Shown here: positions 4,782-59,664 of the stretch, piece after piece
Position numbering within the stretch: position 1 is the stretch's first letter
How the letters are laid out: each line of letters starts with the position of its first letter
Assembly (NCBI GenBank): GCA_043228905.1
Contig: JBHGNT010000004.1
Span: forward strand, 6,386,001-6,450,000
Origin: Azolla caroliniana
Lineage: Eukaryota; Plantae; Polypodiophyta
Reading direction: 5' to 3'
Length of the DNA: 64,000 nucleotides
Notes under the pieces: generated by a model
Told to the model about the DNA's origin: nothing
The model's database searches: none
Seen by the model: only the letters and a program-made list of their open reading frames with translations
Program-made: the position numbers and the translations under genes

Positions 4782-4783
4782 AG

Positions 4784-4795
4784 TGGTATCAGAGC
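4784..4795 (+). promoter_or_regulatory. Primer-binding site, initiator tRNA-Met
   Basis: TGGTATCAGAGC, 2 nt after the LTR end. Confidence 0.95.
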
Positions 4796-4811
4796 GAAAT
4801 CGACACAGAAA

Positions 4812-20220: not shown

Positions 20221-23200
20221 CCCACCCTCACACATCCACGTGTATAGAATACTACAGTAAATTCTCACCACGGGATATTATATGTGTAAACGATTACTTG
20301 CGGAAGCATTAGAAAAAACAGAGAAATTAGGGAATACACAGAGTACCCGAGAGAGACTGAGAGAGCAGAACCTCAAAGCTATACTCAAAAATATATAAAA
20401 CACTCTGTACTTACAATTGTGCTCAGTAGCACTATTTATACAAGTCCTCATGGGACTGATAGAAGTACTGCGTACTTCAATGCTCACACGAGCTTCTTAC
20501 ACTTACTACGAGACTATAATTGCCTAGTAGTCTAAACTAATACTAGGATTCTGGTTACCGATTGGACCCGGCTAACCGGCTCCCCAACTCACCGGCTCTA
20601 TTGCTTGCCGACTTACCGATCCGTCTCGCTTGCCGGCTCAAGCTTATTCAACCGATCCGGCTCCAGTTGAGCTTGCCGCTCAACACTCCCCCTCAAGCTC
20701 AACTTGAGGTTGGATCTTGGTGTCAGTCTCTGTGGCAGTCGGTTCTTCCAACCAAATTCTCCTGGCGTCGCTCCGCCTTGCTCGCGCTCCTCGTCCGGTC
20801 CGGTTCTGTTTGGCGCGACCCTTCTAGTTCTGCGCGCCTCGACCTTCTCGGTTGGTATGTTTGCTCAATAGGCCCCTCTCAGCTCTTTCGTTGTTATGAC
20901 TCTGGCGCTTGCCGATCCGTCGGTTCCTCCGCGATGGCATCGACTTCCGCTGCATCCGTGTCTGCTTAGCCTTGAATTGATCTCGTTCTTCCGAATTTGT
21001 CTTTTGAACCGAATCGACTGTCTCCGATTCGTTCCAGCTCTTGTCCAAATCGGTTGCTCCCGATTCATCTTCTGGTTCCAAGCCCTTCACCACATCGGAC
21101 CATGTTCGGGTCTTGGCCTTCTTCCTTCGGTCGGCTCTGTCCTTCTCGACTCTGCCGCCTTCTAATCTTCCCTCACCGGCGCAATCGGCAGTCTCTTTGC
21201 CTTTCCCCGTTCTGGTGTCTTTGCCCGTTCTCCCCCTTAAATTTGGCACGTCGAGATGTTGAACACCAAGTATTTCGGTAAAGTGCTACAACTTGTCCGA
21301 TCCAAGCGGCTTGGTGAAGATGTCGGCTACTTGCCGATCCGTGTGAACATACCGTAGTTCAAATTCACCGCTCAGGACCCGCTCACGCACAAAGTGATAA
21401 TGCACTTCTATGTGCTTCGTGCGAGCATGGAACACAGGGTTCTTGGTAAGCTGCATGCTGCTTATGTTGTTGCAGTAGACCAGAATCGGGGTCGGTACCT
21501 TGATCCGTAAGTCTTGCAACAGTTGCCGAAGCCAGATGGCTTCACAAGTGGCAATGGTAGCGCCCCGATACTCAGCCTCAGTGCTCGACATAGCAACTGT
21601 TGGCTAATTTTTGTTGCTCCATGGAACAGTCGCGCTACCTAAAGAAAACATGTAACCGGAGGTTGATCGGCGATCTGGTGCATCGCCGGCCCAATCGGCA
21701 TCCGTGTAACCGACGAGCTCTTCGGGTATACCACACAGGTATAACAGGCCCCGGTCCTTCGTGCCGCTAACATACCGCAATATCCTTTCCACGCACTGAA
21801 GGTGCTCCACGGTCAGCTTCTGCATGAACTGACTTATCATTCCAACCAGATAACTGATGTCAGGTCTTGTGATAGTCAAGTAAATAAGGCTTCCGACAAT
21901 CTGTCAGAACCGTTGCTCGTTGCAGGCCGGTCCGGAGTTGGGACGAAGCTTCTGATTCTGGTCCAAGGGTGTGGAGACATGTCGGCATTCTGTCATGCCG
22001 AACTTGTACAACATATTCAAGACGTAATGTCGTTGTGAGAGCAATATACCATCCGGGGTTCGGATCACCTCGATCCCTAGAAAATAATGAAGGTCCCCCA
22101 GATCCTTCATCTCAAATGCGTCCCACAACTGGGACTTGATGTGGTTGATTTCTCGAACTCCTGGTCCGATGATAACTAGATCATCAACATACAGCAGTAT
22201 ACATACCGGACCGGCTGAGCCTTGCCGGATGAACAATGAAGAGTCTGATTTGGAGGCCACAAACCCCATCTTACACAACCGGTGAGTGATCTTCACATTC
22301 CAAGCTCGAGGGGCTTGCTTCAGGCCATACAACGACTTCTTCAGCCGGCATACCGCCGACTTGTTCATCTCCGATTCAAAGCCAGGCGGCTGAGTCATAA
22401 AGACTTCTTCTTCAAGATCACCCTGAAGAAACACATTCTCCACATCCATCTGGTGAAGATGCCACCTCCTTGTTGCAGCAACCGCCAGCACCACACGAAC
22501 TGTCGTCATCTTCGCTACTGGAGTGAAGGTCTCGTCGTAGTCGATTCCATGGGTCTGCGCGTATCCCTTCGCCACTAACCGGGCTTTATACCGATTAAGA
22601 AAACCGCCGTCATTGTACTTTACCTTGTATAACCACTTGCATCCGATCGGTTTACAGTGACGAGGAGGGTCAACCAGGTCCCATGTCTTGTTGACATCAA
22701 GTGCCCACATTTTTTCTTCCATAGCGTCACGCCAATTTGCGTCCTTGGCTGCTTCTGCGTAGCTCTCCGGCTCACGCACTTCCGCCACCTTAGTCATGTA
22801 CGCATAGTGATGCGCCATGTACTCATTGTACCCGTACCGCTTGACGGGATCCTTCTGGCAGGTGAACCGATGTAACTCAATGTTACCCAGTTTGAGACCC
22901 TTCTTGGCCGGTTTGGTCTTCGTTGCCGAAGATCCTCCTTTCTCCTTGCCGGAGTTGGATGCACACTGATCCGACTCATCGTTGCCGGTTTCGAATTTCG
23001 GCATCTTCTTCTTCCCCTTCTCTTTGCGCGTTGTCGAGGTATTCCTCGACGATGCGTGGAATGAGGCGGGACCTCGGGGGTCTTGTACCGAAGAGCAAGA
23101 GAGAAAGTAGAAGGGAACCCACTACCTGCGAGCGTAGATTCGCAGGGACACGGCCCTTCGACACAAAGACGCGAGTGGGACAGCGACACAGATAGACACG

Positions 23201-23740
23201 AATGTATGTATGTATTAACAAAGACAAACAACAAGAACACGAAGTCGGTTACAACCGAACAGGCCGGCGAACAGATGCCGATGCATGTTCGTAAACGCAC
23301 AGAAAGAAAGGAGTAGGTTGGAGGTGCTGCCGGAAGCACTCGGGCATTCCTCAGAGCAGCGCGAGCCTCCCGAAACCTGCGCAGAAAGAAGCTATGGAGT
23401 TTGGAAGAGAGAGAAGCCTTCGGCCCACAATCCGACAGCACTTCGTCCTCTCTTACTTCGCGATCCCTTCCTCCTCCTCGTCTCCCTCCTTTTATAGGCA
23501 AGAAAGGAGCCGTTTCCCCTTTACTTCCTACCCACTAAATCTACCTACCTAGGATCTTCTATGTACCTAATTCTCCCTTATGTACAATATAAGGCGTATG
23601 GGCATGAAGAGCCGGTTCCTACGCCCCGGTCTACCGATTCCGCTCGTGGACGGTTTTCTTCACAACATCCGCCCCCACCTAACCGCGCATCCTCCGGCAT
23701 GCGCCAAATTGAGTTGGGACAGAGAAAACCGGTCCAGCCT

Positions 23741-26700
23741 TCATTCCCCGTCCGTCGGTTCTTCCTCGGTTTCGGATCGTTCGTCGTTCCGGTCCAGGTT
23801 AACCGGATCCGGCTCGTCGTCGTGACGCTTCTTGAACGCTTTGATCCGCTTCCCAGCTACCGGTATCGCCATTTTCGTGTCGTCGAGTTCCGCCAGATGG
23901 TACGTCCCGTTGTCGTTGGCGTTTTGTACCACGTAAGGCCCGAACCACCTTCTTGCGAACTTCCGTGTTGCTCGGTGCTGGTTGTCGAGGTTGCTGTCGT
24001 AGACTAGCACCCAGTCGCCTTCCTCGATCTTCTTCGATCGGGGCCGGTGCGTTTGGTCGAACCGGGCTTTGTTCCTCATCCTTGCTTCCCGAAGCTTTCC
24101 CGCAGCCTGCTCCACGTCCTCCGGTTTTCGCTCGAGCTGTCGTATACGCGCTGTCAACAGTTCCTCCCGGCTCATCTCGTCTCTCCAGTCCATGGTTGCC
24201 CACGAGGATATCGTACGTTCCATCGGCATGACCGGCTTCTGCCCAAACATGAGCTCTGCCGGCATGAATCCGGTTACCGAACTGTGCGTAGTTCGGTCAG
24301 CCCACAACGCGTAAGGCAGCAGCCGCGGCCAGTTCCCGACTTGCCCCCCGCATGCCCGAACTAACGCCTTGACGATCGGTCCGTGTCCGCACTCCACCTT
24401 CCCATTCGCCTCCAGATTGTACGCAGTGGTAAGCGAGAGCTTGACTCCTAGCCGGTCGAACAGCTCCTCGGCCTCTTCGGCGTCCAACTCCCCGCGATCA
24501 GCCACGATCTTCCCGACGCACCCGTACCGGCATATCACGTCCTCGATCAGGAACCGACATACGGCCGCGGTCGTTTTGTTCTGAAGGGCCCGGCCTTCCA
24601 CCTGGTTCGTCAGATCTTCCCAAGCCAGGACCAGATACCGCATCTGTCCTACTCCCTTCGGCGTCGTCACCAGGTCTACCATCCATTTGAAGTGGATGGT
24701 CGGAGGGTACGTAGGGTGAAGCCCGTCCCGATGTCGGACTATGGAGTGCATCTGACAGCTCTCGCAAGTTGTCACGAACCGATGCACGTCCCGGTACAGT
24801 CCCGGCCACCAGTACTTCCCCTTTATCTTCTCGAATGTGGCCCACGTTCCACGGTGACCAGCCCAAGGGCTGTCATGGTAAGCCGTCAGCAGCTCCTCCT
24901 GTTCTTCCTTCATCGCCACTACCCGGAGCGGGACGCCGTTCCTCTTCTTCGGGTGCTTCCATAAGTATCCGTCCCGGAGAAAGAATGGGTAAGCTTTCTT
25001 CCGGATCCGGTTGGCCTCGTCCTTCGTCCATGACGCATCCGGCGTCATTGTCCTCAAAAATCCACCGATTTGGAGCCACTCGCCGTCGTACTTGCTCTCG
25101 TCAAAGTCGTTAAGTGCCGGAGTGCTCATCCCATCAGTCGTCACGTACGCCGCCTCGAAGAAGTCCACGCCGACTTCTTCGTCCTCCGAAACCATGCCGC
25201 CCTCGTCATCAAACCTCGCCCTCGAAAGCATGTCGGCCATGGCGTTGTCCTTTCCGGAAATGTGTCGTATTTCCGGGTCCAGGGACTTGATGTACGCTAT
25301 CCACCTGAGCATCGCCAGGTCCGGTGTCGCGCATCCGGAAACCATGCCGAGAATTGGCAGGCAATCCGTCTCGATAACCACTCCTTTCCCGATCAGGTAG
25401 TCTTTGTCGGCCTTTACTGCCGAAACGATACCCCAGAGTTCGCGCTTAACCTGGGTGTACCCTCGCTGACGCTCACTGAGGACCTTCGGATCGGGAACCG
25501 AATGCCGTCCTTGTCTTCTTGGTTGACGACCCATCCGATCCCGGTCGGGCTCGTATCCACCGTTATGTATACCGGGGTACCCTTCTCGTAGACAGCCTTC
25601 CGGAGCGCCGGTGCTGCCACAAGAGCTTCCTTCAGCTTCCGGACCGACTCGTGTGCTCGTCTCGCCACTCGACTTTTCGCCCCTTCTTCAGCAACCCGTA
25701 TAGCGGTTCCGCAACGTGGGCGTAATGCGGGATCCATATGTGGTAGAACGCGCATGCCCCCAGGAACCTCCGAACTTCCCTAACCGAGCTACAGTCGGCC
25801 TTCATCGCGGAGATGGCTTCTACCTTTGCCGGAGACGGCTTCCGGCCATACGGTCCACACAGGTGTCCGACCACCAGGATTTCTGATTGCCCGAAGGCCG
25901 ATTTCTCCCCGGAGAAGGTGAGCCTCGCATCCTCTAGCCTTTGTAGCACCTTCTCGCAGTCGTCGATGTGTGCTGCCACGAATCGCCGGCATCCGTCCGG
26001 CCCGAGTGTCTCGTCCTTCTCTTCCACCGGGCACCCCTTGATCAGGATGTCGTCTAGAAACGGCATGGTGATGTCCGGGATGCAATCCCTCAGTACCTTG
26101 TTCATTGCATTCACCATGTGGGCCACCGAGTTAGTCCCTCCTTGTGGCAGGGTACACATTCGCACTAGGCCGAGGGGAGTTCGCATCGTCGTAATGTCTC
26201 TGCTCTCCACGGCTAGCTGGAACTGGTCGTACCCCGAGTACAGATCATCGACCGAGTAAATCGACCTTCCGGCGAAGGCCTCCGCGAACTCGTCTATGGT
26301 CGGTCCGATTCCTGCGTTCCGAATGGTCACTCTGTTGACCAGTTGCAGGTCCTGAATGAAGCGCAATGTTCCGTTTTTCTTTGGTACGGTAAACCATCGG
26401 TTCGAGTATGGCGCGCTCGACGGTTCGAGAATACCCATATCGACTTTCTGCCTCAGTAGCTCCATCAACTCCGGGATGTGAGCTCTTGGTACCGGAATCA
26501 GCTTGAGATTCCACGGCACATGCGGTACCGTGAATATCACCATCGGCTCCACGATTGTCGGGTTTACGCACCCGATCTCTTCCGGCGAGAATGCGAAGGC
26601 TTTCCCATGCCTTCCGAGCATTCTCCGAAACCGGTCTTCCTCCTCCGGCAGTAGGAACCCGCCCCCACCGATCTTGAGCTCCCGGAGCGTCCCGTCGGTG

Positions 26701-27233
26701 AAGGTGTGTCCTATGCAAGCCGGATCTCGTAAACTGGGGTCCGACGCAACCCCTCTGATTCGGGACTCGCTGCCCTCCGGTAAGGGTGCCGCGACTGGCC
26801 TTACCTTCCGGTCCACAGCCTTGTACTTCGTGCTAACTCGGGCCATCCGATCCGAACCAAGTCCCTGGCTGAAGTTCGCGATGACTTCGTACATCTCTTC
26901 GGAACATACCAGTATCGTCCGGTCTTCGTTAAGGTCTTCTCCGGCTACCTTCCTCAGCATCCCCAAGGTGTCGTCGAAGGAGACCGCCTCCACGGCTCCG
27001 CTGATTTCCTCGTCCGGGCCGAGAACTCCGCACACTCGAAGTCGCTCTTCCGCCCTTGCCTTCTCTCGGCCAACGATGCCGACTATCATACACCCTCCGT
27101 CGTTGGAGAAGCAAAATTTTCTACCTATCGTACAAGGATTCTTCAGTTTCGGTTCTATCGTACAGCTGTGGGGTCTTTCCCGAGTGTCCGGACTGTCTCG
27201 GCCCCACGCCTTGGCAGCCCTCTCTAAAAATCC
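23741..27233 (-). pseudogene. Gypsy-A ORF2 (pol: RT, RNase H, integrase) in the -1 frame; small indels near 25650 and 25487
   Basis: DLYSGYDQ, LPQGGTNS, PFLDD, TVDTSPTGIG, ETDC, ADMLSR, H...WAGH...C..C, ADRGEL, WFGPY. Confidence 0.9.
27168..27233 (-). promoter_or_regulatory. Predicted -1 ribosomal frameshift signal (G_GAU_UUU plus pseudoknot)
   Basis: Heptamer at plus 27227-27233, directly before the ORF1 stop. The -1 frame is open into pol. Stem arms 27213-27220/27190-27197 and 27202-27207/27168-27173. Confidence 0.8.
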
Positions 27234-29350
27234 TCCCAGTTCTCACCACCGAGGGATTCACGGTTTCGCTCGTGATTCGGCCGCACCGTCAGAAATTAGA
27301 CCGAATGGCGCCCGTCCTGGCTTTTGACCCTCGCATAGGCCGAACCGTTGTCCAGCACCTTGGTCTCCATTCGCGCCGCCGTGATGTATGGTTCCCCTAA
27401 TATGACCGGGTGCGAGGACGTCTCCTGTACAAAGAAGTGCTGGTCAATCTCGACGTCGCCGATCTTGACTCGCACATTCGGGCAGGCCCCGTGCAGTTCC
27501 TCGGTGGCGCGCGTCGCCGCCCGTATCTTCCACCCGTGCCTGGTGTTGATCGGCCACTTTCCCTTCTTATAGAAATCCATGGACATTAGGTTTATTTCCG
27601 AACCGTGGTCCACCAACGCCACCACCGGTTCCTGAACATCTCCGATCTTTACCGGGGTCTCCGTGGTCGCTCGGGCCCAGTGTGGCCTCGAATAGTGGCT
27701 CTCCGCCCACTCATCTGCCAGCGCCGAGTCATCGATGTGCGTCGTCCGCACCTCCACCGGTCTCTCCGGTTCTGTCTCCATCGACAGCCTCTTCCGTTTC
27801 ACCAAGTCCACAATGGAGTTGTGGAACTCCTTCTTGGCGATCCCTAGCACCTCTCGCAATGACAGCTCCACTTTGCTGTGGAGGATCCGTTCTTCTAGGA
27901 CCTTTCGTAGGTTCGTAGTCCTTTCTATTTCCGTCCCCAATCGGTATCCGCCCTTCCTGGGGTTATCTTGTGAGCTGGACCCACCGGCATCGTTCCGTCG
28001 ATGCCCGAATCGGGTCTCGTACCGTTGTGAGGGCCCGGCCATTCCGGCTTTCCCCACTCGTTTGTCTTCTACCAGAACCTCGTAGTTCCGGCAGGCGGCT
28101 TCTACGAAGCCCGTCTTCTCCTCGACCGGATCGCTCCACCCGGTTATTTCCCGGACCCGTCTCTCAGCGCAGTCCATTTCCTCTTTCCTTAGCCGTGCGC
28201 CAGCAAGACCTTCCAGCATTGCCGACCAGAATCCGTCTTTGCCCTCCTTTCGGGCCTCGCTGCCCCCGACCCGAATGTCGGCCGACGCCGAGTAGTGGAT
28301 GGCCTCCATGTGTCGGGCCGTTGCCTCTTCCATCAGTCTCTTCATTCCTCCTCGCCCGTCGTTTCGGTTCAGGGCCCTTCTAGTGTCGCCGGCGTGCACC
28401 CGGCCTTCCCACAGGTATACCACCCGGTTCCTCAACGCTTCTGCGAAATCGCCGCAGTCCTTCCGGATGTGGCCGACCTCGTCGCACCACATGCACTTGT
28501 TCCCTGCTACCGGCCGTCGGTCACGAGCCGGTTCGTCGCCTTCCCTTCGAGTCTGGGCAATCTGGAGATCCTTTATCGCCCGCGTCAACTCCTCCAGCGC
28601 TGCTCCTCCGGACGAGCCACTGACCATGCCGGTCGAAGCCGGACCGGTTTCTAGCCATTCCCGGGTTTCTTCCCTTCGCCCTTGCGGTGCCGGTTCAAGC
28701 CTCCTTGCTGTGACAGAGCCCGCACCAGCCGCCCCATTGTCAGCCCATTCTCGCCGTTTGTCGAAACGGCCACAGACTCTCTTAACCGCAGCCCAGTCGG
28801 TCGTCAGCCCGTCTTCGGTTTCCAGCAAGGAGCCGACTTGATCCCGGTCCTGCTCATCCACCAACTTGACGAACAGTAGGACCCGGCTCGTATCCAGAAC
28901 GGTTCGGTCAAGCGCCGAAAGGCGCACAAAGCGTTCTTCGAATTCCCGGAGGAGTGCCGACGCGTTTCTTCCCTTGCCGGGGGACTCCACCCATTCCATG
29001 AAGTCTCGTTTCGAAAGCCGGAGCGCGTCGTCCAGCCCGTATTTTTCCAGGAGTCGGCCTTCGAACTCCTCCCAGGTACGGCTCTCCGCCCGCACCTCGA
29101 GCACCTCCGCATGGATGCTCAGCATCGCCACTCGAGGAAACCCGGGAAGACGCCTCTCTTCCGGAATGTCCCGCATCAGCATTTCTGCCTCGTAGGACGC
29201 CAAATACTTCGTGGCATCCTTTCCGCTGAACCGGCCGATCGTACCGACGACCGCCTCAATGGCTCTGTTGAGGGCTTCGGAGCCCTCGCGTGCGCTCAAT
29301 ATCCGATCCACGGCCGAAGCCATGGCCTCCGCAAGATCCAACCCTTTCAT
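27224..29350 (-). pseudogene. Gypsy-A ORF1: Gag (CMWCDEVGHIRKDC knuckle) plus aspartic protease (LVDHGSEINL); one premature stop at ~27296
   Basis: ORF 27296-29863 from the first ATG after the PBS. The frame continues past the stop as FLTVRPNHERNRESLGGENWEDF*, collinear with Gypsy-B ORF1. Confidence 0.88.
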
Positions 29351-29372
29351 CTTCTGCTCTTCTGCCGCCTCC

Positions 29373-29390
29373 TTCACGTCGGGTTCACCA
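29373..29390 (-). promoter_or_regulatory. Primer-binding site complementary to tRNA-Trp
   Basis: TGGTGAACCCGACGTGAA, 3 nt after the 5' LTR. It is the reverse complement of the plant cytosolic tRNA-Trp 3' end ...TTCACGTCGGGTTCACCA (recalled sequence). Confidence 0.85.
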
Positions 29391-31716
29391 AGATGTCGAG
29401 GTATTCCTCGACGATGCATGGAATGAGGCGGGACCTCGGGGGTCTTGTACCGAAGAGCAAGAGAGAAAGGAGAAGGGAACCCACTACGTGCGAGCGTAGA
29501 TTCGCAGGGACACGGCCCTTCGACACAAAGACGCGAGTGGGACAGCGACACAGATAGACACGAATGTATGTATGTATTAACAAAGACAAACAACAAGAAC
29601 ACGAAGTCGGTTACAACCGAACAGGCCAGCGAACAGATGCCGATGCATGTTCGTAAACGCACAGAAAGAAAGGAGTAGGTTGGAGGTGCTGCCGGAAGCA
29701 CTCGGGCATTCCTTAGAGCAACGCGAGCCTCCCGAAACCTGCGCAGAAAGAAGCTATGGAGTTTGGAAGAGAGAGAAGCCTTCGGCCCACAATCCGACAG
29801 CACTTCGTCCTCTCTTACTTCGCGATCCCTTCCTCCTCCTCGTCTCCCTCCTTTTATAGGCAAGAAAGGAGCCGTTTCCCCTTTACTTCCTACCCACTAA
29901 ATCTACCTACCTAGGATCTTCTATGTACCTAATTCTCCCTTATGTACAATATAAGGCATATGGGCATGAAGAGCCGGTTCCTACGCCCCGGTGCACAAAT
30001 TCCGCTCGTGGACGGTTTTCTTCACGACAACGTGAACCGTCGCCTCAGTTCCTTGCGCGGGGAGTGCACGGCAGAGTCTCCACTACTCGCCAGTTCCTCA
30101 TTGGACTGATCAGATTGACTCTGTCTCTCGTTCGGCCCACTCAACCGGAACGATTCCGGACTCTCATCCTGAGTCCACGCTTCATCATCCTTTACTTGGG
30201 CCGGTTCAGGATCACTAGCCTCATCCACCGGCATCGGGTTATATTCGGATGTCAGAGTCGGTAAGGAGTACCACGATGCCGATTCATCAAACTCGACATC
30301 TCGACTAACTTGGACCTACTTTGTCCGGGGGTTATAACACTTATAACCCTTTTGCTCTTGAGTATAGCCGACTAGGATGCATTTTTCCGATTTTGCATCC
30401 AGCTTCCTCCGCTTCTCATCCGGTACATGCACAAATGCAATGCTACCGAAGATCTTAAGGTGTCTCAAATTCGGCTTCCGCCCAAAATACAACTCGTGAG
30501 TTGACACCTTGTCACCGATCCAGTTCTGGATGTAGACAGCCATTCGGATTGCCTCCGCCCAGTAGAATTTGGGCATGCTCTTCTCCTCCAGCATCGCCCT
30601 TGCCGCATCGATAAGCGACTGGTTCTTCCTCTCGGCAACAACGTTCTGTTGTGGTGTGTATCTGCAACTAAACTCTCACTGAATACCCGTTTGTTGAAGA
30701 TATTTGTTGAATTGGCCGGAAAAATACTCTTTTCCGCCATCCGACCGTAGGCATTTGATCTTCCTTTCCGATTCCCGTTCCACCATCCTTTGGAGACTCC
30801 GGAAACACTCGAAGACTTCACTCTTCCGCTCAATGAGGTAGATCCATGTGTGCCGCTTATAGTCATTGATGAAGGAGACGAAATATCGACTCCCGCCAAG
30901 ACTAACATTCTGTGTCGGTCCCCACACATCCGAATGGATAAGGTTGAGCTTGTTATGGCTCCAGTTACATTCGGTGGGGAATGGAAGCCGGTGTTGCTTC
31001 CCGAGTTGGCATGCTTCACATACTTGGGCCTTCCGGCTGCTAAACTACGGCAAACCGAAAACAAATTGTTTCGTTTGCAGGTCTTGAAGCCTCTAGTAAT
31101 TGACGTGGCCTATCCGCTTGTGCCACAGGTCGATGTCCGATTTGACCTTCTGTCCTTTTGCAAACAAAGCAGTGCCGACGTGATTGGTGTCGAGGATAAA
31201 CATCCTCCCGTCTCTATGCCCTTGTGCAATAATCTAGCCCTCTTCCTCGATGAAGCACCCAAGGTGCGTAAACCGCACCTGCATCCCTTGGTCGACGATC
31301 TGTCCGACCGCAACCAGGTTCTTTGTGATCGTCAGAACGTGTAATACGTTCATCAGCTTTCCCTTCTGTCCGACGTGGCTCAAAGGGACTTCTCTGACAT
31401 GCACGATTGGGTGAGGAGTTTCGTCTCCGGTTTCGACTACTCCTGGTTGATCCGGTTTTTCCAAAAAGGAGAACTACTCTTTGTGGCTCGTCATGTGGTT
31501 CGACGCACCGGAGTCAACATACCAGACTTCCTCCGATTTGGAAGTGGTCTTCTTCATCGAGTTCGCCTCGTGCTTCATCACCAAGGCTGGCCCGTTACCA
31601 TTCTTGGATCCTCCCGATCCCTTCGCGTAGTGCGAGCTTTGCCGGCCATCCTTGTCGGCCTTGCCGGATCCGGATTTGTCTAAATCGGCGCGTTTTACTG
31701 TTGCCACCTTCATCAT

Positions 31717-33354: not shown

Positions 33355-34074
33355 TCTCGCACACATACACGCACATATCACTTAATCTTCCGCTACGTAA
33401 TCGCTTAACTTAATCACATAATTAGGTAATAATTATTCCTTAACATGGTACCAGAGCGTGTGGTTTAGAAAATCCACTAAGCCCACCCGACTCCGTGATT
33501 GTGTGTTCGAGATGCCAACGACAAAATCCAGCTATCGGCTACCGTAGTGCCGCTACGTAGCACGTTGTCGTGAAGATTTTCGGCAATAGTGTGAAAATCC
33601 TATAAAACGTACGAAATCGAGTATGAATCATGTAGTACAATAATTGTGAAGATAACATTTTAAATAGATTTAATATCTAAGTACAAAATGATGGAGGTTT
33701 CGAATGCACTTTATTACACGAGAAACGGACAACTAAATGTCAAGATATGAGGGTATAAAGTTTGTAAAAGGAAAGGAGAAAATTGTGAGATATCCCACAT
33801 AGGCACGACAAATACAGCTCTCATCATATATAAGGTGGAGCAAAAGATATTATCTTTGTGTCTATGTGTGGAGCATAGAGAGTTCAAGGTAACTTGAACT
33901 AAGAGTGGAGGTGGGCTAGCTACTCGTAAAGGGTTTTGGCCAACCAAAACCGGACCGGCGATGGAGCCGGTGATCCGGCGGCATCCGACGGCAATCCGGC
34001 ACCGGTAACCGACGACATCCGACGACTAGATAAATAAATATATAAATATATATACATATTTACATATACAAGGA

Positions 34075-34146
34075 AGGCAAGTAAGGATTCAAACCTTGCA
34101 CCTCCAAGTTAGGAGTCAATTGGCTTACCATTAAGCCATGCTATTT
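34075..34146 (-). other. tRNA-like (SINE-head-like) cassette with Pol III A and B boxes inside the Gypsy-B 5' LTR; second copy at ~41079-41150
   Basis: Minus strand TGGCTTAATGG (A box, plus 34128-34138) and GGTTTGAATCC (B box, plus 34085-34095) at tRNA spacing. D-arm GGCTT/AAGCC, T-arm AAGG/CCTT. Confidence 0.6.
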
Positions 34147-34602
34147 AGTTGAAATTATATTTCTATCATTGTACTTTTACATGTAAATTCTCATACATGA
34201 GAACTAAAATGAGTGACATGGTTATCATGCACCACATGTAATACATAAGCGCCAAATGGCAAACATGCAATTTATGCATGTCTTGTACCCTCACATGCAT
34301 CATATGCATGAGAGCATCTATAAAAGAGGGAAGGGGGAGGAGAAAAAACACGGTTTTTTTTTATGAAAATTAAGAGGAAGAAATTCGTTATCAAATTGAT
34401 CGTGTAACTTGTTTCTTAAATCTAAAGTTAAAAGTTCAATCAATCTCTCTCAATCGTGTAATCTCAACTTCTCTCTTTCCCAATCTATCTTAAGTACTTT
34501 CTCGCCAAAGCTTGTATCGACTATAAATCCTTCTGGTCCAGAACCCCGGCGGTTCCGCCTCACGATCCGCGCGTAGTGACGGATCTTCACGACATAATTA
34601 AG

Positions 34603-34620
34603 TGGTGAACTCGATGTGAA
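34603..34620 (+). promoter_or_regulatory. Primer-binding site, tRNA-Trp type
   Basis: TGGTGAACTCGATGTGAA, two C>T changes relative to the Gypsy-A PBS, 8 nt after the LTR. Confidence 0.8.
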
Positions 34621-34661
34621 AGAGGCGGTAGGAAGGATCAAGTCGAAATTAATACTTGGAG

Positions 34662-36860
34662 ATGGCGTCCTCAAGCAACCAAGCAGGAGAGCTCGAAAGG
34701 ATGATGCTAATCGTCGAGCAAATGATGAGATCTCGGGACAACGACGCGAGCGTGGAGAAGGCTATCGATCGTGTCGTAGAGCTCGAGGGCCAATTCGATG
34801 GAAGGAACGTTACGAAGTTCCTTGATGCATATAGAAGGGAGATGAATCAGAGGGACGTGTCCGAGGCACGTCAAATCGCAAGCTTCAAGAGAGTTGTCGC
34901 CAACAACATCCAAAGACGCGTCATCGAGCTTCAAGAAGGTAAGACAACATGATCCGAGTTCGAGAAAACGATACTAGCGGAGTTCGTGACTGAAGACTCA
35001 ACGAGGATGACTCGACATGCCCTGATGAAGTGGATAAAGAAGAAGAATAAGAAGATGAGCATCTCGAGGGTGTACGACGAATTCGACCAGATGTTTAGTC
35101 GTCTCCCCAATACGGACCAAGTGTTGCTTGAAGAGGACAAGACTTTGTACTTCTTGAAGGCCGTGGACATAAAGGATGGACGGGAGTTGGGGACTCTTCT
35201 CGAAGATGATACCCAAGCAAATGGGCTCGTAGCGGACTGGATCGCGGTGAAGCGGGCATGCAATAGGCTCGACAAGCGTCGCCAATGGGTTGATGACACC
35301 GACATGACGGGACTGACTACCACGGAGAAAGCAAGACCGCCGAAAGTAGCTGAGCCGCTGAGACAAAGTAACGTGGAAGAAAAGAAGATTGATGATGACA
35401 TCATTGAAGAGCTAGTGAAGAAGTTCGAGAAGGTCACGCTAGCCAACATGAATCGTCGGGGCCCTAAAGGAAAAGAACCCTTTAGATGCGTGTGGTGCGA
35501 TAGCATGGACCACATGAGAAGGGATTGTGCGAGCCTTTGAGAGGCGATTCGACAAAATATCGTATACATAGAGGACAACATGATCTGCTCAAGCGAGACT
35601 AGAAGACCCCTACGGGTGAATTTCGAAAGTGGAGGAATGAAGAAATCTATGGAGGATGCCGATGCGACTCATGTGGATGCGATGCACTATGCTGCGTTGG
35701 CCGGAATAAGAGTCAGGAAAGACAAGACTGAAGCTGCTAGAGCGGGAGCAAAGTTTTAGACTTCCGTTCTCGAATATGAGAAGAAGGGAAAAATCACATC
35801 GAACGAGGTAGAGCTTGCGGACCGAAGTGTGCAAAGCATAACCAGGTGGTCGGATCCGGTGGACGACAACACCATACTCGCAGAGGTGATGTGCGACAAC
35901 CACGAGGTGTTCGTCGAAGAAAAGAGAAAGAGAATAGAAGAGCAAGGCCCATCTAAAAGACATGAAACAAGGAACGCGAAAAAGAAGGATGATACGAAGA
36001 CGAGTCGACCTTTACAAATGGAGGAACGAGAATCAAGTCGAAAAGGGGAGCCAAGCATACGAGTTGAAGAAACGGTTCGGCCCGTGAAGGTTGGTGTCGA
36101 AGACCCCACTCGGAGGACAAGGACTATACCTACCTATAAGCTAAGGTCGGACATAGAGCAGACGACGGACCTAAAGAAGATTCTCGAAGAACGAGTTCTT
36201 GATAGCCACGTAACTTTGTCCTTGAGGGAATTGCTTGGCATTACGAAGAAGGAGTTCCACGACACGATCGTGGACCTTGTAAAGAGAAAGAGACAACAAT
36301 CGGACGAGGAAGAAGAGAAGCCGCAAAAAGCAAAAACGAATGCCATAACGATGGCAAGAGACGAAATCGATGAAGATATGGTGGACAGCCACTACACTCG
36401 ACCTCATTGGGCACGAGCGACAACGGAGACGCCGGTGAAGATCGGGGAGAAGAAAGAGACCGTCGTAGCCTTGATCGACCATGGCTCGGAGATCAACCTC
36501 ATGTCAACCGACTTCTACAAAAAGGGAAGATGGCCAATCAATACAAACCACGGATGGAAGATTCGCGTGGCAACAAAGTCTACGGAGGACTTGTACGGAG
36601 CTTGTCCCAATGTCAAAGTCACGATCGGGGATGTGGAGATGGATCAACACTTCTTCGTACAAGAATCGGCGTCGCATCCTGTCATCCTAGGGCAACCTTA
36701 TATCACATCATCTCGGATGGAGACCAGAGTGTTCGATAATGGAGCAGCCTTCGCACGAATAAAGAGTCTTGACAACCAAAGATCGGTCCAATTCCTAACG
36801 GTGCGAGCCAATCATGAAAGGAATCGAGATAGTCTCGGAGGCGAATCCTCGGATTTTTAG
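34662..36860 (+). pseudogene. Gypsy-B ORF1: Gag plus protease, with three in-frame stops
   Basis: Same-frame ORFs 34656-34952, 34986-35540 (CVWCDSMDHMRRDC) and 35829-36860 (LIDHGSEINL). Confidence 0.88.
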
Positions 36861-36913
36861 AGCGGACTATTGAAGCATGGGGCACAAATAGTCCGAGCAA
36901 TCACAAGACCCCA
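36851..36913 (+). promoter_or_regulatory. Predicted -1 ribosomal frameshift signal (G_GAU_UUU plus pseudoknot)
   Basis: GGATTTT 36851-36857, TAG 36858-36860. Stem 1 ggactatt 36864-36871 / aatagtcc 36887-36894. Stem 2 tgggg 36878-36882 / cccca 36909-36913. Confidence 0.82.
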
Positions 36914-39900
36914 CAAGAAAGAAGAGTGTGTGGATTGCAAGGAGAAGCAACATGTGTCACACCTAGTGGCGCATGTAAACTAGTACTACCCGACAAGAAG
37001 CACAAGCACCGGATACAAGAATTCGAGAAGATGCTGAAAGAAGAGAACATAATAGAAGAAGGGGAGTTCGTGACTCATATTATGGAAGAAGCTTCATTTA
37101 ACGACACCATCGGTGAAATCGAGGACGTCGTGGACTTGAGCTATCTTCACAACCAATGCGTGATTTCAGTTAACTCCGTCAACATGTACGCTATCATCGA
37201 TGAATACCGTCGTGGCATCTCGATGAAGGAAGCTGACATCAACATGAAATATAAAACGGTGGATAAGAAGATCAAGCCAGTTGCGGTTCCGCTACCGGAA
37301 GATAGCTGGCAAAAGATGAAGGAAGTCGCTAACGATCCAAGCTTAAGAGATCCGAAGAAGATAGGTCATGTCTTCACCAAAGAGACGAAGGGGAAGCTAC
37401 GAGTTGGAAAGGAGAATTTCCTTCTCCCTGAAGAGGACCAAATGTTTCGCGATATGCTTGAGAGACATGGGAAGGCTTTCGCATTCTTCCCATGAGAAAT
37501 CGGATGCGCCGACCCAAAGGTTATAGAGCCGATGGTGATCTTCACGGTGCCTCATGTGCCTTGGAACTTGAAACCGATACCGGTTCCGAGAGCACACCTT
37601 CCGAAGCTGATCGAGCTCTTAAAGGAGAAGGTGAGTATGGGAATTCTAGAACCGTCGAATGCTCCTTATTCCAATAGGTGGTTCACGGTGCCGAAGAAGA
37701 ATGGATCATTGCGATTCATCCAAGATCTTCAACCCGTCAACAAGGTGACAATTCGAAATGCCGGAATCGGTCCGAGCGTGGACGAATTTGCCGAAGCGTT
37801 TGCGGGCCGGTCCATCTACTCCATTGGCGATCTCTACTCCGGATATGACCAATTCCAATTGGCGATCGACAGTCGGGACATTATAACCATGAGGACTCCG
37901 ATCAGGCTTGTGTGGATGTGTACCTTACCCCAAGGCGCAACGAACTCGGTGACTCATATGGTGAATGCCATGAATAAAGTCTTGAAGGATTGCATTCCGG
38001 ACATCACGATGCCATTCTTGGATGATATTCCGATAAAAGGATGTTCGGATGAGGAGAAAGATGAATCGAAAGATAAGGAAGTTTGTAGAAAGTTCGTTGC
38101 CGATCATATGAAAGATTGCAAGAAGGTGCTTCAAAGGCTCGAAGATGCGAATTTGACATTTTCGGGAGAAAAATCCGCATTCGGGCAACCGGAGATCTTG
38201 GTGGTAGGTCACTTGTGAGGAGCATACGGCCGGAAGCCCTCGCCATCCAAAGTGAACGCAATCCAAGACATGAAAGAAGAATGTGAAAACCAAACGGAGG
38301 TTCGAAGGTTCCTTGGAGCGTGCGCGTTTTATCATATATGGATTCCTCACTACGCTCATGTCGCCGAACCGTTATATGGACTACTAAAGAAAAGAATAAA
38401 GTTCGAATGGCGAGACGAGCACACAGAGGCGATGCGAAGATTAAAGAAACTGCTTCTTGAAGCTCCGGCACTAAGGAAGGCCAACTATGCCGAAGGGAAA
38501 CCAATTTACGTGACCGTAGATACGAGCCCAACCGGAATCGGGTGGGTCATCAAGAAGGTGAAGATAATGCGCGATATGCCGTCCGGTTCGGAGCCAAGGT
38601 TCTCAGCTAAACTATGCCGGAATCAAGAAGGTGAAGATAATGCGCGATATGCCGTCCGGTTCGGAGCCAAGGTTCTCAGCGAACGGCAACAAAGATATGC
38701 CCAAGTCAAGCGGGAACTTTGGGGTATTGTGTCGGCAGTGAAGACGGACAAAGATTACCTGATCGGGTCAGAAGTGATAATAGAGACAGATTGTCTCCCA
38801 ATTCTCAGAATGGTCTCGGGATGTGCGACCCCAGATCTTGCTATGCTAAGGTGGATCGCCTACATCAAGTCTTTAAACCCAGAGATCCGTCACATCGCAG
38901 GGAAGAAGAACGCCATGGCTGACATGCTGTCGAGGGCAAGATTTTCAAATGGAAGTAACATGGTTTCGGAAGATGAAGATGTCGCCCTCAACTTCTTCAA
39001 GATGGCTCGATTGTCGGCGGAAGACCAGGACACGCAAACCCTCCACGCCTTCAACGAGAACGAGTACGAAGGAGAATGGTTACTCATCGGTAGATTCCTA
39101 AGAACATTGACGACAGATGCTTCGTTGACAAAGGAGGAGGCCCTACGAATCCGAAAGAAAGCTTACTGATACTTCTTGAAGGGAGGATTCCTTTGGTGAC
39201 ATCCAAAAAGAAGGACAGGAATACCACGTCGAGTGGTGGTAAAGAAAGAAGAGCAAGAGACGCTGATGACCGAATTCCACAAGAGTGCTTGGGCAGGTCA
39301 TAGAGGAACATGGGCGACGTTCGAAAAATTGAAGGAGAAGTACTGGTGGCCAAGCATGTACAAAGATGTACTCCATTTCGTGTCCACATGTGAAACTTGC
39401 CAAATATATTCAAATATACGTCATCGTGATGAGTTAAAGCCGACATACCCATTCACCATTCACTTCAAATGGATGGTGGATCTGGTCTCGATGCCAATGG
39501 GAGTGGGACAAATGAAGTACTTAGCGCTCGCAAGGGAAGACTTGACAAATCAAGTGGAAGGACGAGCCTTGACAAATAAGACGACTTCAGCCGTTTGTAA
39601 ATTTTTACTTGAAGATGTTGTTTGCCGATATGGATGTGTAGGGAAGATAGTGGCCGACCGAGGGGAGTTGGACGCGCACGAAGCGACGGAGCTCTTCGAA
39701 AGACTAGGCGTGAAGCTCTCCCTCACGACTGCCTACAATCCGGAAGCAAATGGGAAGATCGAGCGAGGGCATGGACCTATCGTTAAAGCCATCGTACGGG
39801 CATGCAACGGTCGAGTCGGGAATTGGCCACGACTATTACCCTATGCCTTGTGGGCCGATAGAACGACACATAGCTCGGTGACAGGGTATATGCCGACAGA

Positions 39901-40414
39901 GCTTATGTATGGACAAAAGCCAATTATGCCCATCGAAAGGACGATCGCCTCATGGGTAGCGATACCGTGGGAGAACGAGATGAGCCAAGAAGAGTTATTA
40001 GCAGCGCAGATAAGGCAACTTGAAAGAAGACCTGAAGATTTAGAAAAAGCGCGAAAGATGATGAAGGCAGCCCGAGTAAAGAACAAAGTTCGGTTCGACA
40101 ACACGCATTGACTTCGTCCCAAGAAGATTGAAGAAGGGGATTGGGTTTTGGTTTACGACAGCACCCTTGACAATCAACACAGTACAACAAGGAAGTTCAC
40201 AAGAAGATGGTTCGGGCCGTATGTGGTGACAAGTGCCAACGATAATGCCACATACCACCTTGCGGAACTAGACAGATCAAGGTTGGCCGTACCCATTGCG
40301 GGAAAAAGAGTAAAAATTTTCAAGAAAAGACAAGACAAGGATCCTGACCTCGACTACCTCGACGATGAATATAATAGGCCGGATGAAAATGAAGACATGG
40401 AGGAATCTAATTGA
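36851..40414 (+). pseudogene. Gypsy-B ORF2 (pol: RT, RNase H, integrase), several in-frame stops
   Basis: Same-frame ORFs 36926-37495, 37532-38218 (LPQGATNS, PFLDD), 38252-39169, 39233-40111 and 40148-40414. Confidence 0.9.
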
Positions 40415-43012
40415 TCATCATAGCCGAAATCTCACTTCTTCTCTTCTTGGCACGTACTGGAGGACGTGCGGTTTGGTGGGGGTGGATGTCGTGAAGATTT
40501 TCGGCAATAGTGTGAAAATCCTATAAAACGTACGAAATCGAGTATGAATCACGTAGTACAATAATTGTGAAGATAACATTTTAAATAGATTTAATATCTA
40601 AGTACAAAATGATGGAGGTTTCGAATGCACTTTATTACACGAGAAACGGACAACTAAATGTCAAGATATGAGGGTATAAAGTTTGTAAAAGGAAAGGAGA
40701 AAATTGTGAGATATCCCACATAGGCACGACAAATACAGCTCTCATCATATATAAGGTGGAGCAAAAGATATTATCTTTGTGTCTATATGTGGAGCATAGA
40801 GAGTTCAAGGTAACTTGAACTAAGAGTGGAGGTGGGCTAGCTACTCGTAAAGGGTTTTGGCCAACCAAAACCGGACCGGCGATGGAGCCGGTGATCCGGC
40901 GGCAATCCGGCGACGGTGATCCGACGGCACCGGTTACCGACGGCAATCCGGCGACGCACTGGTATCCGGCAACGGCATCGGTAACCGACGACATCCGGCG
41001 ACAGTATCCGGCGAACCGGCGTCCGGCGACTAGATAAATAAATATATAAATATATATACATATTTACATATACAAGGAGGGCAAGTAAGGATTCAAACCT
41101 TGCACCTCCAAGTTAGGAGTCAATTGGCTTACCATTAAGCCATGCTATTTAGTTGAAATTATATTTCTATCATTGTACTTTTACATGTAAATTCTCATAC
41201 ATGAGAACTAAAATGAGTGACATGGTTATCATGCACCACATGTAATACATAAGCGCCAAATGGTAAACATGCAATTTATGCATGTCTTGTACCCTCACAT
41301 GCATCATATGCATGAGAGCATCTATAAAAGAGGGAAGGGGGAGGAGAAAAAACACGGTTTTTTTTTATGAAAATTAAGAGGAAGAAATTCGTTATCAAAT
41401 TGATCGTGTAACTTGTTTCTTAAATCTAAAGTTAAAAGTTCAATCAATCTCTCTCAATCGTGTAATCTCAACTTCTCTCTTTCCCAATCTATCTTAAGTA
41501 CTTTCTCGCCAAAGCTTGTATCGACTATAAATCCTTCTGGTCCAGAACCCCGGCGGTTCCGCCTCACGATCCGCGCGTAGTGATGGATCTTCACGACAAC
41601 GTGTACGTGATCGAAGGAAGAAAAGCAAAACAAGGAAGGCACAAAACAACATGAACACACAAATGGGTAGCTCGCTCCCTAGCGAAAAGCTAGACCGGAG
41701 CAATTATTCATCTTGGGAGTACAAGATGACCCAATACCTCGTCGGCCAAGGGTATTAGAGCTACATCAACGGCGCACTCGAGAACAAGCCCGACAACACA
41801 AACGCCAACTACCCAACGTGGGAGCAAGGAGCGAATCGGGTAATGTATTGCTTGGCAACATGTGTCCACGACCACATGCTTAGCCACATTCGAGACACCA
41901 AGACGCCCAAAGAGGCATAGGAGAACTTAAAGAAAATGTTCGCCGCCAACACGACCGCCCAAAAGCTTCAACTCCGACTAGAGTTGAACAACATTTGGCA
42001 AAAAGACATGTTCGTGTCGGACTACACCGCCAAAATCAAGAGCATTTGCAACTCGCTTGGCTCCATCAACATAAACGTCGACGAAGACGAGATGGTTCAA
42101 GTATGCTTGGGCAGCCTCACACAACGATTTGATCCACTACGGATGGCAATCTTGGCGAGAGAAAACTCTCCTTCGTTCTTCAACCTCCAATCGATGTTAT
42201 TGGTCGACGAAAACCACGTCCAAGCCAAAAGCAAGGCACCGGAAGGACAAATGTTCTTCTCGAATTCGAACGGTGGTCGAGGAAGAGGTCATGGCGGTAG
42301 AAGAGGAAGTCATCGAGGAACCTTTGGAAGAAGGGGGAGCTTCCAAACCGAACAAGGTCGGCAAACGAGGCCCGCAACTTGCAACTATTGCGGCAAAATC
42401 GGCCACTGCGAGGAGGAATGCTGAAAAAGAAGAAGCGAGTCGGCTTCCACAAGTCGACAACACACGAATTACACCGTCAACTCCGAATACGATGATTACG
42501 ACGGACTATTCATAATGAGTCATAGACCGAACTCTATGACGGCCTACGACTCCGCAAGCACCTCCAACTCGGAAGACGTGTGGTTCGTCGACTCCGATGC
42601 CTCACATCACATGACATCTCACGAAGAGTGGTTTCGTGACTTGCGTACACCGGACCGACCCAGCTTCATAGAGACGGGAGACGACACCACACGCCCCATT
42701 CAGCACATTGGCAATGTCCCATTCGAGAAAGAAGGCAAGCAAACTTGCATCAAGAATGTCTTGCACGTGCCCACAATAACGAAGAAATCGTTGAGCAAGG
42801 CATGCAAGTCTGCTTCACCAAAGAAGGATGCTTCATCGAGAAAGATGGTCGAGTCGTAGCTAAGGGGCGAAGAGAAGGTCGAATGTTCATCTTCGATTCG
42901 AGCGAGGTGAAATTGACAATGTATGCTAAAGGTCTCAAAAACGAGACGAACATCGACTTGTGGCACAAAAGAATCGCCACATCAACCTCCAACGGCTCCA
43001 AGCTATGCAAAC

Positions 43013-58100: not shown

Positions 58101-59664
58101 CCAGCTCATTTTCTAGCTCACTAACCTTCTTCCTTGCTGTTTCACCATCTAATTTAGAAGTAGCTAAAAAGTCTTGCAACTCAATAATTTTTTGATTCAA
58201 TTCAGACATAGACTTGTAAACATTCTCATACTTCTCTTCTGATGCCACAAGTTGCTCCTGATACTTGATATCAAGCTGCTTTGCATTATCTTCAGCTTTT
58301 TGTTGAAGTTCCACAGATTTTGATCTCAAGTTATCTAGTTCTTTATGGAGATCAGCAATAGTCTCATCCCTGGTCATCAAAGTAAGTTCAGACTTTTTTA
58401 GCATATCTTCCAAACTGCTGAGTTGTGTTTTCAGCTCTTCTTCTTTGGTGTTTATTCTCAACTCTAGTTCTTTAGTTCGGTCTTTCTCATCAGAATTTTC
58501 CTTCTCAAGTTGGACGAGTTTCAATTTTGCTTGGTCAAATTCTTCCTGAACTTTGGCCATATGAACCTTTGTCTCTTCCAAAATATTTGCTACTCGAACT
58601 CCCTCAAGAACCTGATCTTTCATTTCGTCAAGTTCATCTTGCAAGGCTTTCACTCTCTCAAGCACCTCATAATGTTTAGATTCTGCGGCCTCTGCATCAC
58701 CTTTGAATTTGTTACATTCTTCCAAATATTTGTTAGCAATAGTTACCTGATTCTTCAATTCTTTCTGGTATTCTTCAGCTTCATTGGAAGCAGCAGACAA
58801 AGAGGTTTCCAATGCCTTGACCTTTCCTTGAACAGATTCTAACTCTATCTTTGCATCATTAAGAGACTTCATAATAGTTTGTTCTTCATCACCCCTTCTA
58901 GATAACTCTTCTTGATGAGCTTTTACCAGTGCCGAAAGGCTTTCCTCAGCTTCTCTTATTTTATTATCTGCATTGGAAAGATGTTGATCTAGCATTGTCA
59001 CTTTCTCTTTCAAATTCTCACAATCTTCCTTCGTCTTCTGCAATTCAATCTTTGCATTTGTTGCTTCATCTTTAAAAATAGCGAGCTCTACAGCAAGTTG
59101 AGAAGCTTCACTTTCTAAAGCTTTGAGTTTCTCTTGATCAACAGACGCACCTTCTAGCTCAGATTTAGACTTCTGCAATTCATGGCGGAGATGGGTGATC
59201 TCTTCAAGGGATTCTTTTTTACAATTTTCCATTGCATCCTTTGTTATGTGTATTTCCTCCTCCAAGATTTTGAGTTTCTTGTGTGCGTCACTTGAGGGAA
59301 AGTCTTTATTGCCATTATCAATGTTTACATGACCATTTTCTTTCATTGGTGGAAGATCGGCCTGGAATTTTTCTGGGTGCTTTAATTCCGTATTTGGCAT
59401 CTGTGTAGACCAAATATGTGAAGTTAATATAAACCCCATATGTTCAAAACAAAATCAGAGGAAGGAACATGCTTCCAATCAATGGGTAAAAGAAATTTTT
59501 TAACAAACGCATGCTTCTAAGGAATATGTTTAGGCGAAACGCTGATAAAGACACACTGCACGCTAATCACTGAAGACACGCAAAGTTCTCAGAAACAATA
59601 CCTCATCAGCTTCTTTAGCCACACGATCTACGCTTCCAGCTGTTACTTCATTCTCTGAATCCAT
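55166..59664 (-). CDS. Long coiled-coil protein with a C-terminal transmembrane anchor, PICC/PICL-like, ~1286 aa; exons 59664-59602, 59400-56296, 56114-55860, 55766-55623, 55459-55166
   Basis: All phase-0 GT-AG introns and a 1035-codon E/K/L-rich exon. C-terminus KSREID...SP...RKKK...FLFHVLLAMVSLTTGFWLARKIYL resembles the Arabidopsis PICC tail (recalled). Confidence 0.82.

Follow-up and report, generated by a model that had tools for sequence, protein, structure and literature searches.

The window analysed here is a 64,000-nucleotide stretch of Azolla caroliniana DNA (GCA_043228905.1, contig JBHGNT010000004.1, positions 6,386,001 to 6,450,000, forward strand), and contains two copies, A and B, of a Gypsy long terminal repeat (LTR) retrotransposon. 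Comparison of these copies with related loci suggests that the junction between the protease and the reverse transcriptase (RT) is a programmed -1 ribosomal frameshift site, in a Phygy-type Gypsy lineage of non-seed plants (probability about 0.88). Most ribosomes would stop at the end of the first open reading frame (ORF1) and release Gag-protease. A minority would pause at a pseudoknot of the H type while tRNA-Asp and tRNA-Phe occupy GAU UUU, slip back onto GGA UUU, and continue into a Gag-protease-RT-RNase H-integrase product. The rarity of the slip would keep the RT and the integrase scarce.

Copy A (33566-41598, plus strand; 8,033 bp) has an ORF1 (34662-36860) that encodes Gag (DUF4100) and protease, and ends in Asp-Phe-stop. 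The slippery heptamer G_GAT_TTT lies at 36851-36857, followed by a 6-nt spacer (36858-36863) that begins with the ORF1 stop codon TAG (36858-36860). Stem 1 consists of a 5' arm GGACTATT (36864-36871) and a 3' arm AATAGTCC (36887-36894), with 8/8 pairs. The predicted stem 2 pairs TGGGG (36878-36882), within the stem 1 loop, with CCCCA (36909-36913). The pol region in the -1 frame (36857-40414) contains a linker of about 130 codons, RT, RNase H, and integrase. Copy B (23032-30029, minus strand; 6,998 bp) is nested in a Copia element. It has, all on the minus strand, an ORF1 for Gag-protease (27224-29350; natural stop 27226-27224), the same heptamer (27227-27233), a predicted pseudoknot (27168-27220; stem 1 27220-27213/27197-27190, stem 2 27207-27202/27173-27168), and a pol start in the -1 frame (25635-27227; linker and RT, about 530 codons open).

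An earlier sequence-only reading of this DNA had proposed the frameshift site in both copies, and its heptamer, stem, and loop coordinates were matched base for base on re-check. Relative to copy A, both bases differ at pairs 6 and 8 of stem 1 in copy B, pair 3 is a G-U, and pair 7 is a C-A mismatch, the same set of changes that had been described. The -1 frame opens 25 nt (copy A) or 16 nt (copy B) before the ORF1 stop, and continues beyond the RT start in both copies. The conserved peptide that was quoted as GFLER needs a correction. Its first two residues, "GF", come from reading the -1 frame in the part upstream of the shift, where a shifted ribosome would read Asp-Phe. Both copies are dead elements. 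In copy A, ORF1 is interrupted by three premature stops and pol by five; in copy B there is one at 27298, and the RNase H frame is broken.

A metagenome scan identified 168 confirmed stretches, and the best 80 were kept; with the two window copies they form a set of 82 rows. The pol frame is -1 in 62 rows, +1/-2 in five, frame 0 in none, and unlocated in 15. Family members with one continuous ORF, an arrangement that the sequence-only reading had named as counting against frameshifting, were found at 0 of the 67 related loci with pol located. Three of the five loci with +1/-2 pol (L012, L058, and L071) were rejected as -2 loci, since their +1 score is due to later, downstream indels; the other two (L049 and L054) form an intact sub-clade. 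An ORF1 of at least 650 aa together with a pol of at least 1000 aa was found in 26 of the 44 loci with enough upstream DNA (25 with -1 pol and one with -2).

A linker of 119-154 poorly conserved codons extends from the heptamer to the conserved RT start. Among 57 distinct linkers, 53 are stop-free in the -1 frame, two in the -2 frame, and two are broken; the other two frames contain on average 8.4 and 11.0 stops. Stops in the pol frame occur upstream of the heptamer as near as 10 nt. The first pol-frame AUG is scattered over codons 1-109 (53 linkers), and none is fixed. The dN/dS values (ratio of non-synonymous to synonymous substitution rates) of the linker are 0.17-0.53 (13 of 14 pairs computable), which indicates that the linker is under purifying selection. 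The open -1 linker, the protein-level selection, and the lack of a fixed AUG or splice donor favour entry into pol by frameshifting over splicing or reinitiation. Scans of viral contigs for related loci found none. The bacterial genome collection gave two loci, L081 and L082, which contain pieces of this eukaryotic element and are probably contamination. L082 ends before the site. The distant L081 (58% protease identity) was fetched only once the geometry had been settled, and it fits: heptamer, 6-nt spacer, a 7/8 stem, and an open -1 frame are all present.

The constraint on the heptamer was examined in 44 distinct rows, chosen solely by an ORF1 ending in Asp-Phe. The base before the Asp codon is G in 44/44 rows, with the preceding codon spanning 11 amino acids. 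The Asp codon is GAT in 44/44 rows, and the Phe codon is TTT in 42/44. Control codons of the same rows are mixed: the catalytic Asp is GAC in 38 and GAT in 5, and Phe is TTC in 22 and TTT in 19. Over the whole set, the ORF1 stop is directly preceded by GGATTTT in 63/82 rows and by GGATTTC in 4/82; the rest are moved-stop sub-clades or damaged copies. The stop codon itself is variable (TAG 20, TAA 13, and TGA 6 in 39 rows), and shifts 0, 1, or 5 codons downstream without the stem moving. The ORF1 stop lies five codons past the heptamer, inside the stem 1 loop, in loci L063, L066, L075, and L076, and in proteins P0007, P0034, P0044, and P0064 (Physcomitrium and Adiantum proteins included).

The geometry downstream is also fixed, consisting of the heptamer, 6 nt, an 8-bp arm, a 15-nt loop, and an 8-bp arm. 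The spacer, anchored on the best stem, is 6 nt in 59 of the 62 rows with -1 pol; the range for -1 frameshift cassettes is given as 5-9 nt (PMC5009743, in the sections available). The stem alignment contained 39 of 54 distinct rows, omitting 12 near-duplicates and the degenerate loci L056, L058, and L071 (broken pairs); eight further loci, with no in-frame heptamer or cut short, were also left out. In these 39 rows, 97.4% of the stem 1 cells are paired, with double changes at six of the eight pairs. None of 500 shuffles was as high, and slid registers were 25-40% paired. A tree-aware null, in which each 3' column was re-simulated along the independent protease tree, gave a mean of 276 paired cells compared with 304/312 observed, and 0/20,000 simulations were as high. 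Stem 1 thus covaries beyond both nulls, as the sequence-only reading had predicted. With no row filter, a stem of at least 7/8 pairs was found 6 nt after 68/73 site heptamers and 10/421 others, and four of those ten are the same site in loci absent from the anchor list. Among the non-site heptamers in the window, 2/59 have such a stem. Stem 1 is extended to about 12 bp in several clades.

In stem 2, a purine-rich loop tract pairs with a second tract that lies 9-18 nt beyond stem 1, and the two change in step (GTGGGG/CCCCAC, GCGAGA/TCTCGC, ACAGGG/CCCTGT, and CAAGG/CCTTG). The own-pair score is 16.05, compared with a cross-pair score of 12.98 (22 rows; 0/100,000 permutations). Stem 2 is supported across the family and not in a single copy, and the structure is probably a pseudoknot. 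Plain folding, which does not model the knot, yielded z-scores between -3.4 and +0.3, with copy B inside the range of its shuffles. A search of Rfam found no family matching 36700-37100.

A single ORF, about 680-830 codons long, encodes both Gag and protease. The predicted model of the ORF1 end (36411-36857, plus strand; predicted local distance difference test score (pLDDT) 78) has a retropepsin fold, and matches Ddi1 and the retroviral proteases in a fold search (E 8.6e-06, probability 1.00). Weak Pfam protease matches were found in 7/30 members, and a PDB sequence search with the protease found nothing. The usual active-site motif of these proteases is D-T/S-G. Protein homologs were examined as the best 120 of 226 matches (P0001-P0120), and a D-H-G-S motif is present in 96 of these 120 listed homologs (window 36477-36488). 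Their C-termini are DF in 60, GF or NF in 5, DF or GF plus five residues in 27, VF plus one residue in 2, and otherwise in 26 (truncations and gene models). Among the 50%-identity representatives, the protease end is reached in 63/112; 28 have the same endings, 20 run on, and 15 end otherwise. Endings of the DF/GF type recur at 31-40% identity among these representatives. Physcomitrium, Adiantum, and Riccia are the named sources of homologs, which by themselves would point to a non-seed plant host, probably a moss. The protein-atlas look-alikes include clusters from basidiomycetes, 829-864 aa in length, that carry DUF4100 and protease. As a lead from these proteins, the layout may be shared with fungi. 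The pol linker, about 120 aa before RT (window 36857-37250), has conserved residues and predicted helices, and may be a small transframe domain. The best fold match of its model (pLDDT 67, predicted template modelling score 0.32) had Z of at most 2.4 and was uninformative.

The intact sub-clade of L049 and L054 has a different junction. Both loci have AG_GTT_TTT, one further codon, and the stop, and an 8-15-8 stem begins 5 nt past the heptamer; folding predicts a stem of 10-12 bp in both. The -1 frame is closed (in L054 it stops at once), and pol is open in the +1/-2 frame. The pol ORFs of 1099 and 1152 aa contain RT, RNase H, and integrase, and their products align with the -1 products from the first residues. 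The two loci are sisters (Shimodaira-Hasegawa-like approximate likelihood-ratio test 99; 79% protease identity). Their dN/dS is 0.05 in the protease, 0.17 in the linker, and 0.12 in the RT start, which indicates that both ORFs are under purifying selection. Further full 724-aa ORF1 copies with the same C-terminus make up 4 of the 15 listed members of a 35-member protein cluster. The L049/L054-type junction is crossed without gaps by contigs from two further runs, X5 and X16, whose codes indicate two studies; one contig has a depth of 153. Three substitutions are listed within the element in these contigs, and pairs are kept or added; no coverage of L054 was obtained from runs X21 and X22.

These features make it likely that L049 and L054 use a -2 frameshift. 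With one base lost from the spacer and the site changed to AG_GUU_UUU, the same pseudoknot would drive a -2 shift into the same pol product. Shorter spacers favour -2 shifting in HIV (human immunodeficiency virus) cassettes (PMC5009743, available sections), and also at the GG_GUU_UUU site of PRRSV (the virus causing porcine reproductive and respiratory syndrome) in wheat-germ extract (PMC4937337, likewise in part). The -2 cases in the available text of PMC5009743 are phage Mu, the arteriviruses, and a Trichomonas virus. Locus L070 has G_GTT_TTC, a 6-nt spacer, and -1 pol. Therefore, GUU alone does not set the direction.

Several points weigh against these readings. The frameshift evidence is comparative throughout, and GGA is a known but non-perfect XXX triplet. 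Most of the loci (75/80) trace to a single numbered series of metagenome assemblies; they are not independent samples, and so probably represent few host species. Leaving out the near-duplicates and the three degenerate rows raised the paired fraction of stem 1, and the 4-bp extension of this stem is paired in only 55.8% of cells. For stem 2, only 9/22 rows have their own partner as the best or tied choice, and in the window copies alone the pairing does not exceed shuffles (p 0.076 and 0.21), with single-copy shuffles often not significant. The -2 clade consists of two families with one origin. Moreover, ten Riccia/Physcomitrium gene models join ORF1 to pol, several of them at a common downstream point, so that splicing in liverworts is possible. 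An Ogre-like intron, removing the ORF1 stop in some transcripts and joining the protease to RT, could give such models, and Ogre is spliced at the same domain boundary (PMC6317226, available sections). However, these moss and liverwort gene models are the only long fused homologs; they exit ORF1 at differing points, and their nine displayed junctions lack the Asp-Phe site or the following peptide. A conserved donor is absent, the commonest GT offset being found in 12/31 rows and GTRAG in 6/31. The ORFs overlap, and the linker is coding, open from the heptamer onward and selected as protein, in place of the non-coding spacer with conserved splice sites of the Ogre type. The invariant G_GAT and the fixed spacer would also be unexplained by splicing, which is considered very unlikely. 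One joint skipping the site was rejected as splice evidence; it came from a DNA run and had non-intron ends. A run guessed to be RNA crosses the site in a single contig at depth 3, which was too weak and was not used.

The pol might otherwise be made separately, by termination-reinitiation or internal initiation, with the stem as an initiation element. A pol-frame AUG overlaps the ORF1 stop, as AUGA or UGAUG, in two loci only (L070:1258-1275 and L028:4231-4245). Elsewhere the first AUG may stand at any place in the linker range given above, and the frame is stop-free ahead of it. A free pol without Gag would also lack packaging, and separate synthesis is highly improbable. RNA polymerase slippage, rather than the ribosome, could shift the frame on the run of four to six T residues present at the site in most copies. 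This run is short, and GATTTC variants exist, as noted above; a spacer of the translation type and a covarying stem are conserved; and no indel is listed at the site in the contigs, which are DNA or of uncertain kind. Polymerase slippage is rated extremely improbable. The stem and pseudoknot might be conserved mainly for packaging, dimerisation, or protection from nonsense-mediated decay, jobs that are compatible with frameshifting. In retroelement RNAs, structures close to recoding sites often serve further purposes. Against such a main role, the distance from stem to heptamer is 6 nt wherever pol is -1 and 5 nt where it is -2, although the stop moves, and we regard this explanation as improbable. 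For L049 and L054 only, a +1 shift, or non-autonomous copies that spread with a fixed 1-nt deletion, might replace the -2 shift. The same frame is reached by +1 and -2, the UUU_U of L049 permits a +1 slip, and the ORF1 of L054 is open for only 287 codons in its assembly. In contrast, the UUU_G of L054 gives no perfect +1 re-pairing, and the heptamer has also changed from GAU to GUU, as A-site re-pairing in the -2 frame needs. The selection on both ORFs and the full-length ORF1 members likewise argue against these alternatives, which seem unlikely but deserve more weight than the others.

Copies A and B fit the Phygy type, judged from its described features. Phygy elements have a 4-bp NCGN target duplication, a tRNA-Trp primer site, and an ORF organisation listed as ND (Neumann et al. 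2019, PMC6317226, supplementary file 5). Similar features were found here: an NCGN duplication (ACGT/ACGT in copy A, ACGT/ACGC in copy B), a short internal region filled by the polyprotein, homologs in Physcomitrium, and the order Gag-protease-RT-RNase H-integrase; Pfam scans found no chromodomain and no archaeal or extra RNase H. A TGGTGAACCCGACG-type primer site adjoins the LTR in both copies, with 39 matches in the loci. In copy A this primer binding site (TGGTGAA...; 34603-34618, plus strand) is presumably of the tRNA-Trp type. The length of Phygy is 7.7-10.0 kb. Copy A is inside this range, and copy B, which has short LTRs, is below it. The Phygy survey names no recoding signal in its available sections (PMC6317226), and the relatives found here reach fern and liverwort proteins, and probably the basidiomycete clusters.

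The sequence-only reading had proposed a virus-like -1 switch giving abundant Gag-protease and scarce pol. The switch itself is supported, but other plant Gypsy elements, Ogre and Retand, are likewise interrupted between Gag-protease and RT-RNase H-integrase. In Ogre the boundary holds an intron of about 274 bp that is spliced, and in Retand 49% of intact elements have one in-frame stop there (PMC6317226); here, the frames overlap, and are bridged by a heptamer and a covarying stem. The single stop of Retand between protease and RT is itself a candidate readthrough site. Tcn1 and Selgy of non-seed plants have overlapping ORFs in different frames, but their break is between Gag and protease (PMC6317226). 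PEG10 has a -1 heptamer and a pseudoknot, and in PEG10 and animal Gypsy elements the break is also between Gag and protease. Unlike in Tcn1, Selgy, and PEG10, the protease would be made with every Gag here. Beta- and deltaretroviruses such as mouse mammary tumour virus (MMTV) and human T-cell leukaemia virus (HTLV) frameshift by -1 between protease and RT (HTLV-1 pro-pol, PMC5009743, available sections), but they need an additional first gag-pro shift, whereas Gag and protease are a single ORF here.

Among plant viruses, red clover necrotic mosaic virus was named in the sequence-only reading as a user of the exact G_GAU_UUU heptamer. In the literature available in part, the dianthoviruses have G_GA-type sites, and the pea enation mosaic umbravirus has G_GAU_UUU. 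These viruses share with the present site the heptamer, a stop close behind it, and plant ribosomes. Their stimulator, in the same partial sources, is a stem-loop pairing with a distant 3' element, whereas the predicted knot here is local, within about 60 nt. The -2 sub-clade resembles PRRSV nsp2TF (GG_GUU_UUU compared with AG_GUU_UUU), where the -1 frame also stops at once, as in L054 (PMC4937337, in part). However, the available text describes PRRSV as having no RNA structure and as needing nsp1beta and PCBP, with a C-rich motif about 10 nt downstream (PMC4937337). The arterivirus motif CCCANCUCC was not visible in the L049/L054 rows, which have an RNA stem 5 nt downstream instead. A break of frame in the fungal relatives may be mentioned by Gao et al. 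2003 (reported to cover retrotransposon recoding signals), by the papers of Goodwin and Poulter (Tca3, Cryptococcus elements), or by a 2021 New Phytologist paper said to concern fungus-derived retrotransposons in non-seed plants. In a literature search, with subscription papers mostly outside its reach, the site was not described; nor was it described in the available parts of PMC2864245, PMC3248453, PMC4139406, PMC7466625, PMC11963269, and PMC8708638. According to Atkins et al. 2016 (PMC5009743, in part), the arrangements that a 2003 survey found in plant elements were all of the +1-frame kind, and a 2025 review details splicing as the route of plant LTR elements in its available sections (PMC12786077).

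The novelty looks like a frameshift bridging the protease/RT break, together with an apparent natural switch from -1 to -2; the class of mechanism is known. It seems fairly probable that the whole Gypsy lineage (mosses, liverworts, ferns, and probably basidiomycetes) controls its RT and integrase by a single pseudoknot-driven frameshift after the protease, and that one branch was rewired from -1 to -2 by a lost spacer base and a change from GAU to GUU. The expression of Phygy pol would thereby gain a candidate mode. Next to the intron of Ogre and the stop of Retand, this would be a third way for non-chromovirus Gypsy elements to cross from protease to RT, and it suggests that selection favours one protease for each Gag. 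Dozens of natural, covarying pseudoknots for plant ribosomes, as predicted here, are also supplied. The -2 shift, if true, would be a natural RNA-structure-driven case beside -1 relatives. Such paired families make the spacer-length (mRNA tension) model testable on natural sequences, where engineered cassettes have been used until now. For annotation, it should be considered that gene finders cross this site with probably false introns.

The remaining features of the window concern the state of the elements. Copy A has a 4-bp target duplication, ACGT, on both sides. Its 5' LTR (33566-34594, plus strand) and 3' LTR (40487-41598) have 1021 matches and 8 mismatches. The LTRs are thus near-identical (8 mismatches/1029) despite eight premature stops in the interior, seven of which are TGA. 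Copy A is probably either a dead copy moved recently in trans, or one with an interior deaminated fast. A duplication with a 73-nt period lies inside its RNase H (38549-38683), and the pol frame is preserved through it. The LTRs of copy B (29394-30029 and 23032-23667, minus strand) are identical at 624/636 positions, and are flanked by ACGT and ACGC. A 1067-codon ORF at 56251-59454 (minus strand) gave weak coiled-coil matches only. The Copia polyprotein at 4557-8314 consists of two long frames that overlap (6368-6536) inside the integrase, and this split is probably due to one indel. The LTR regions of this Copia element contain 54-nt tandem repeats.

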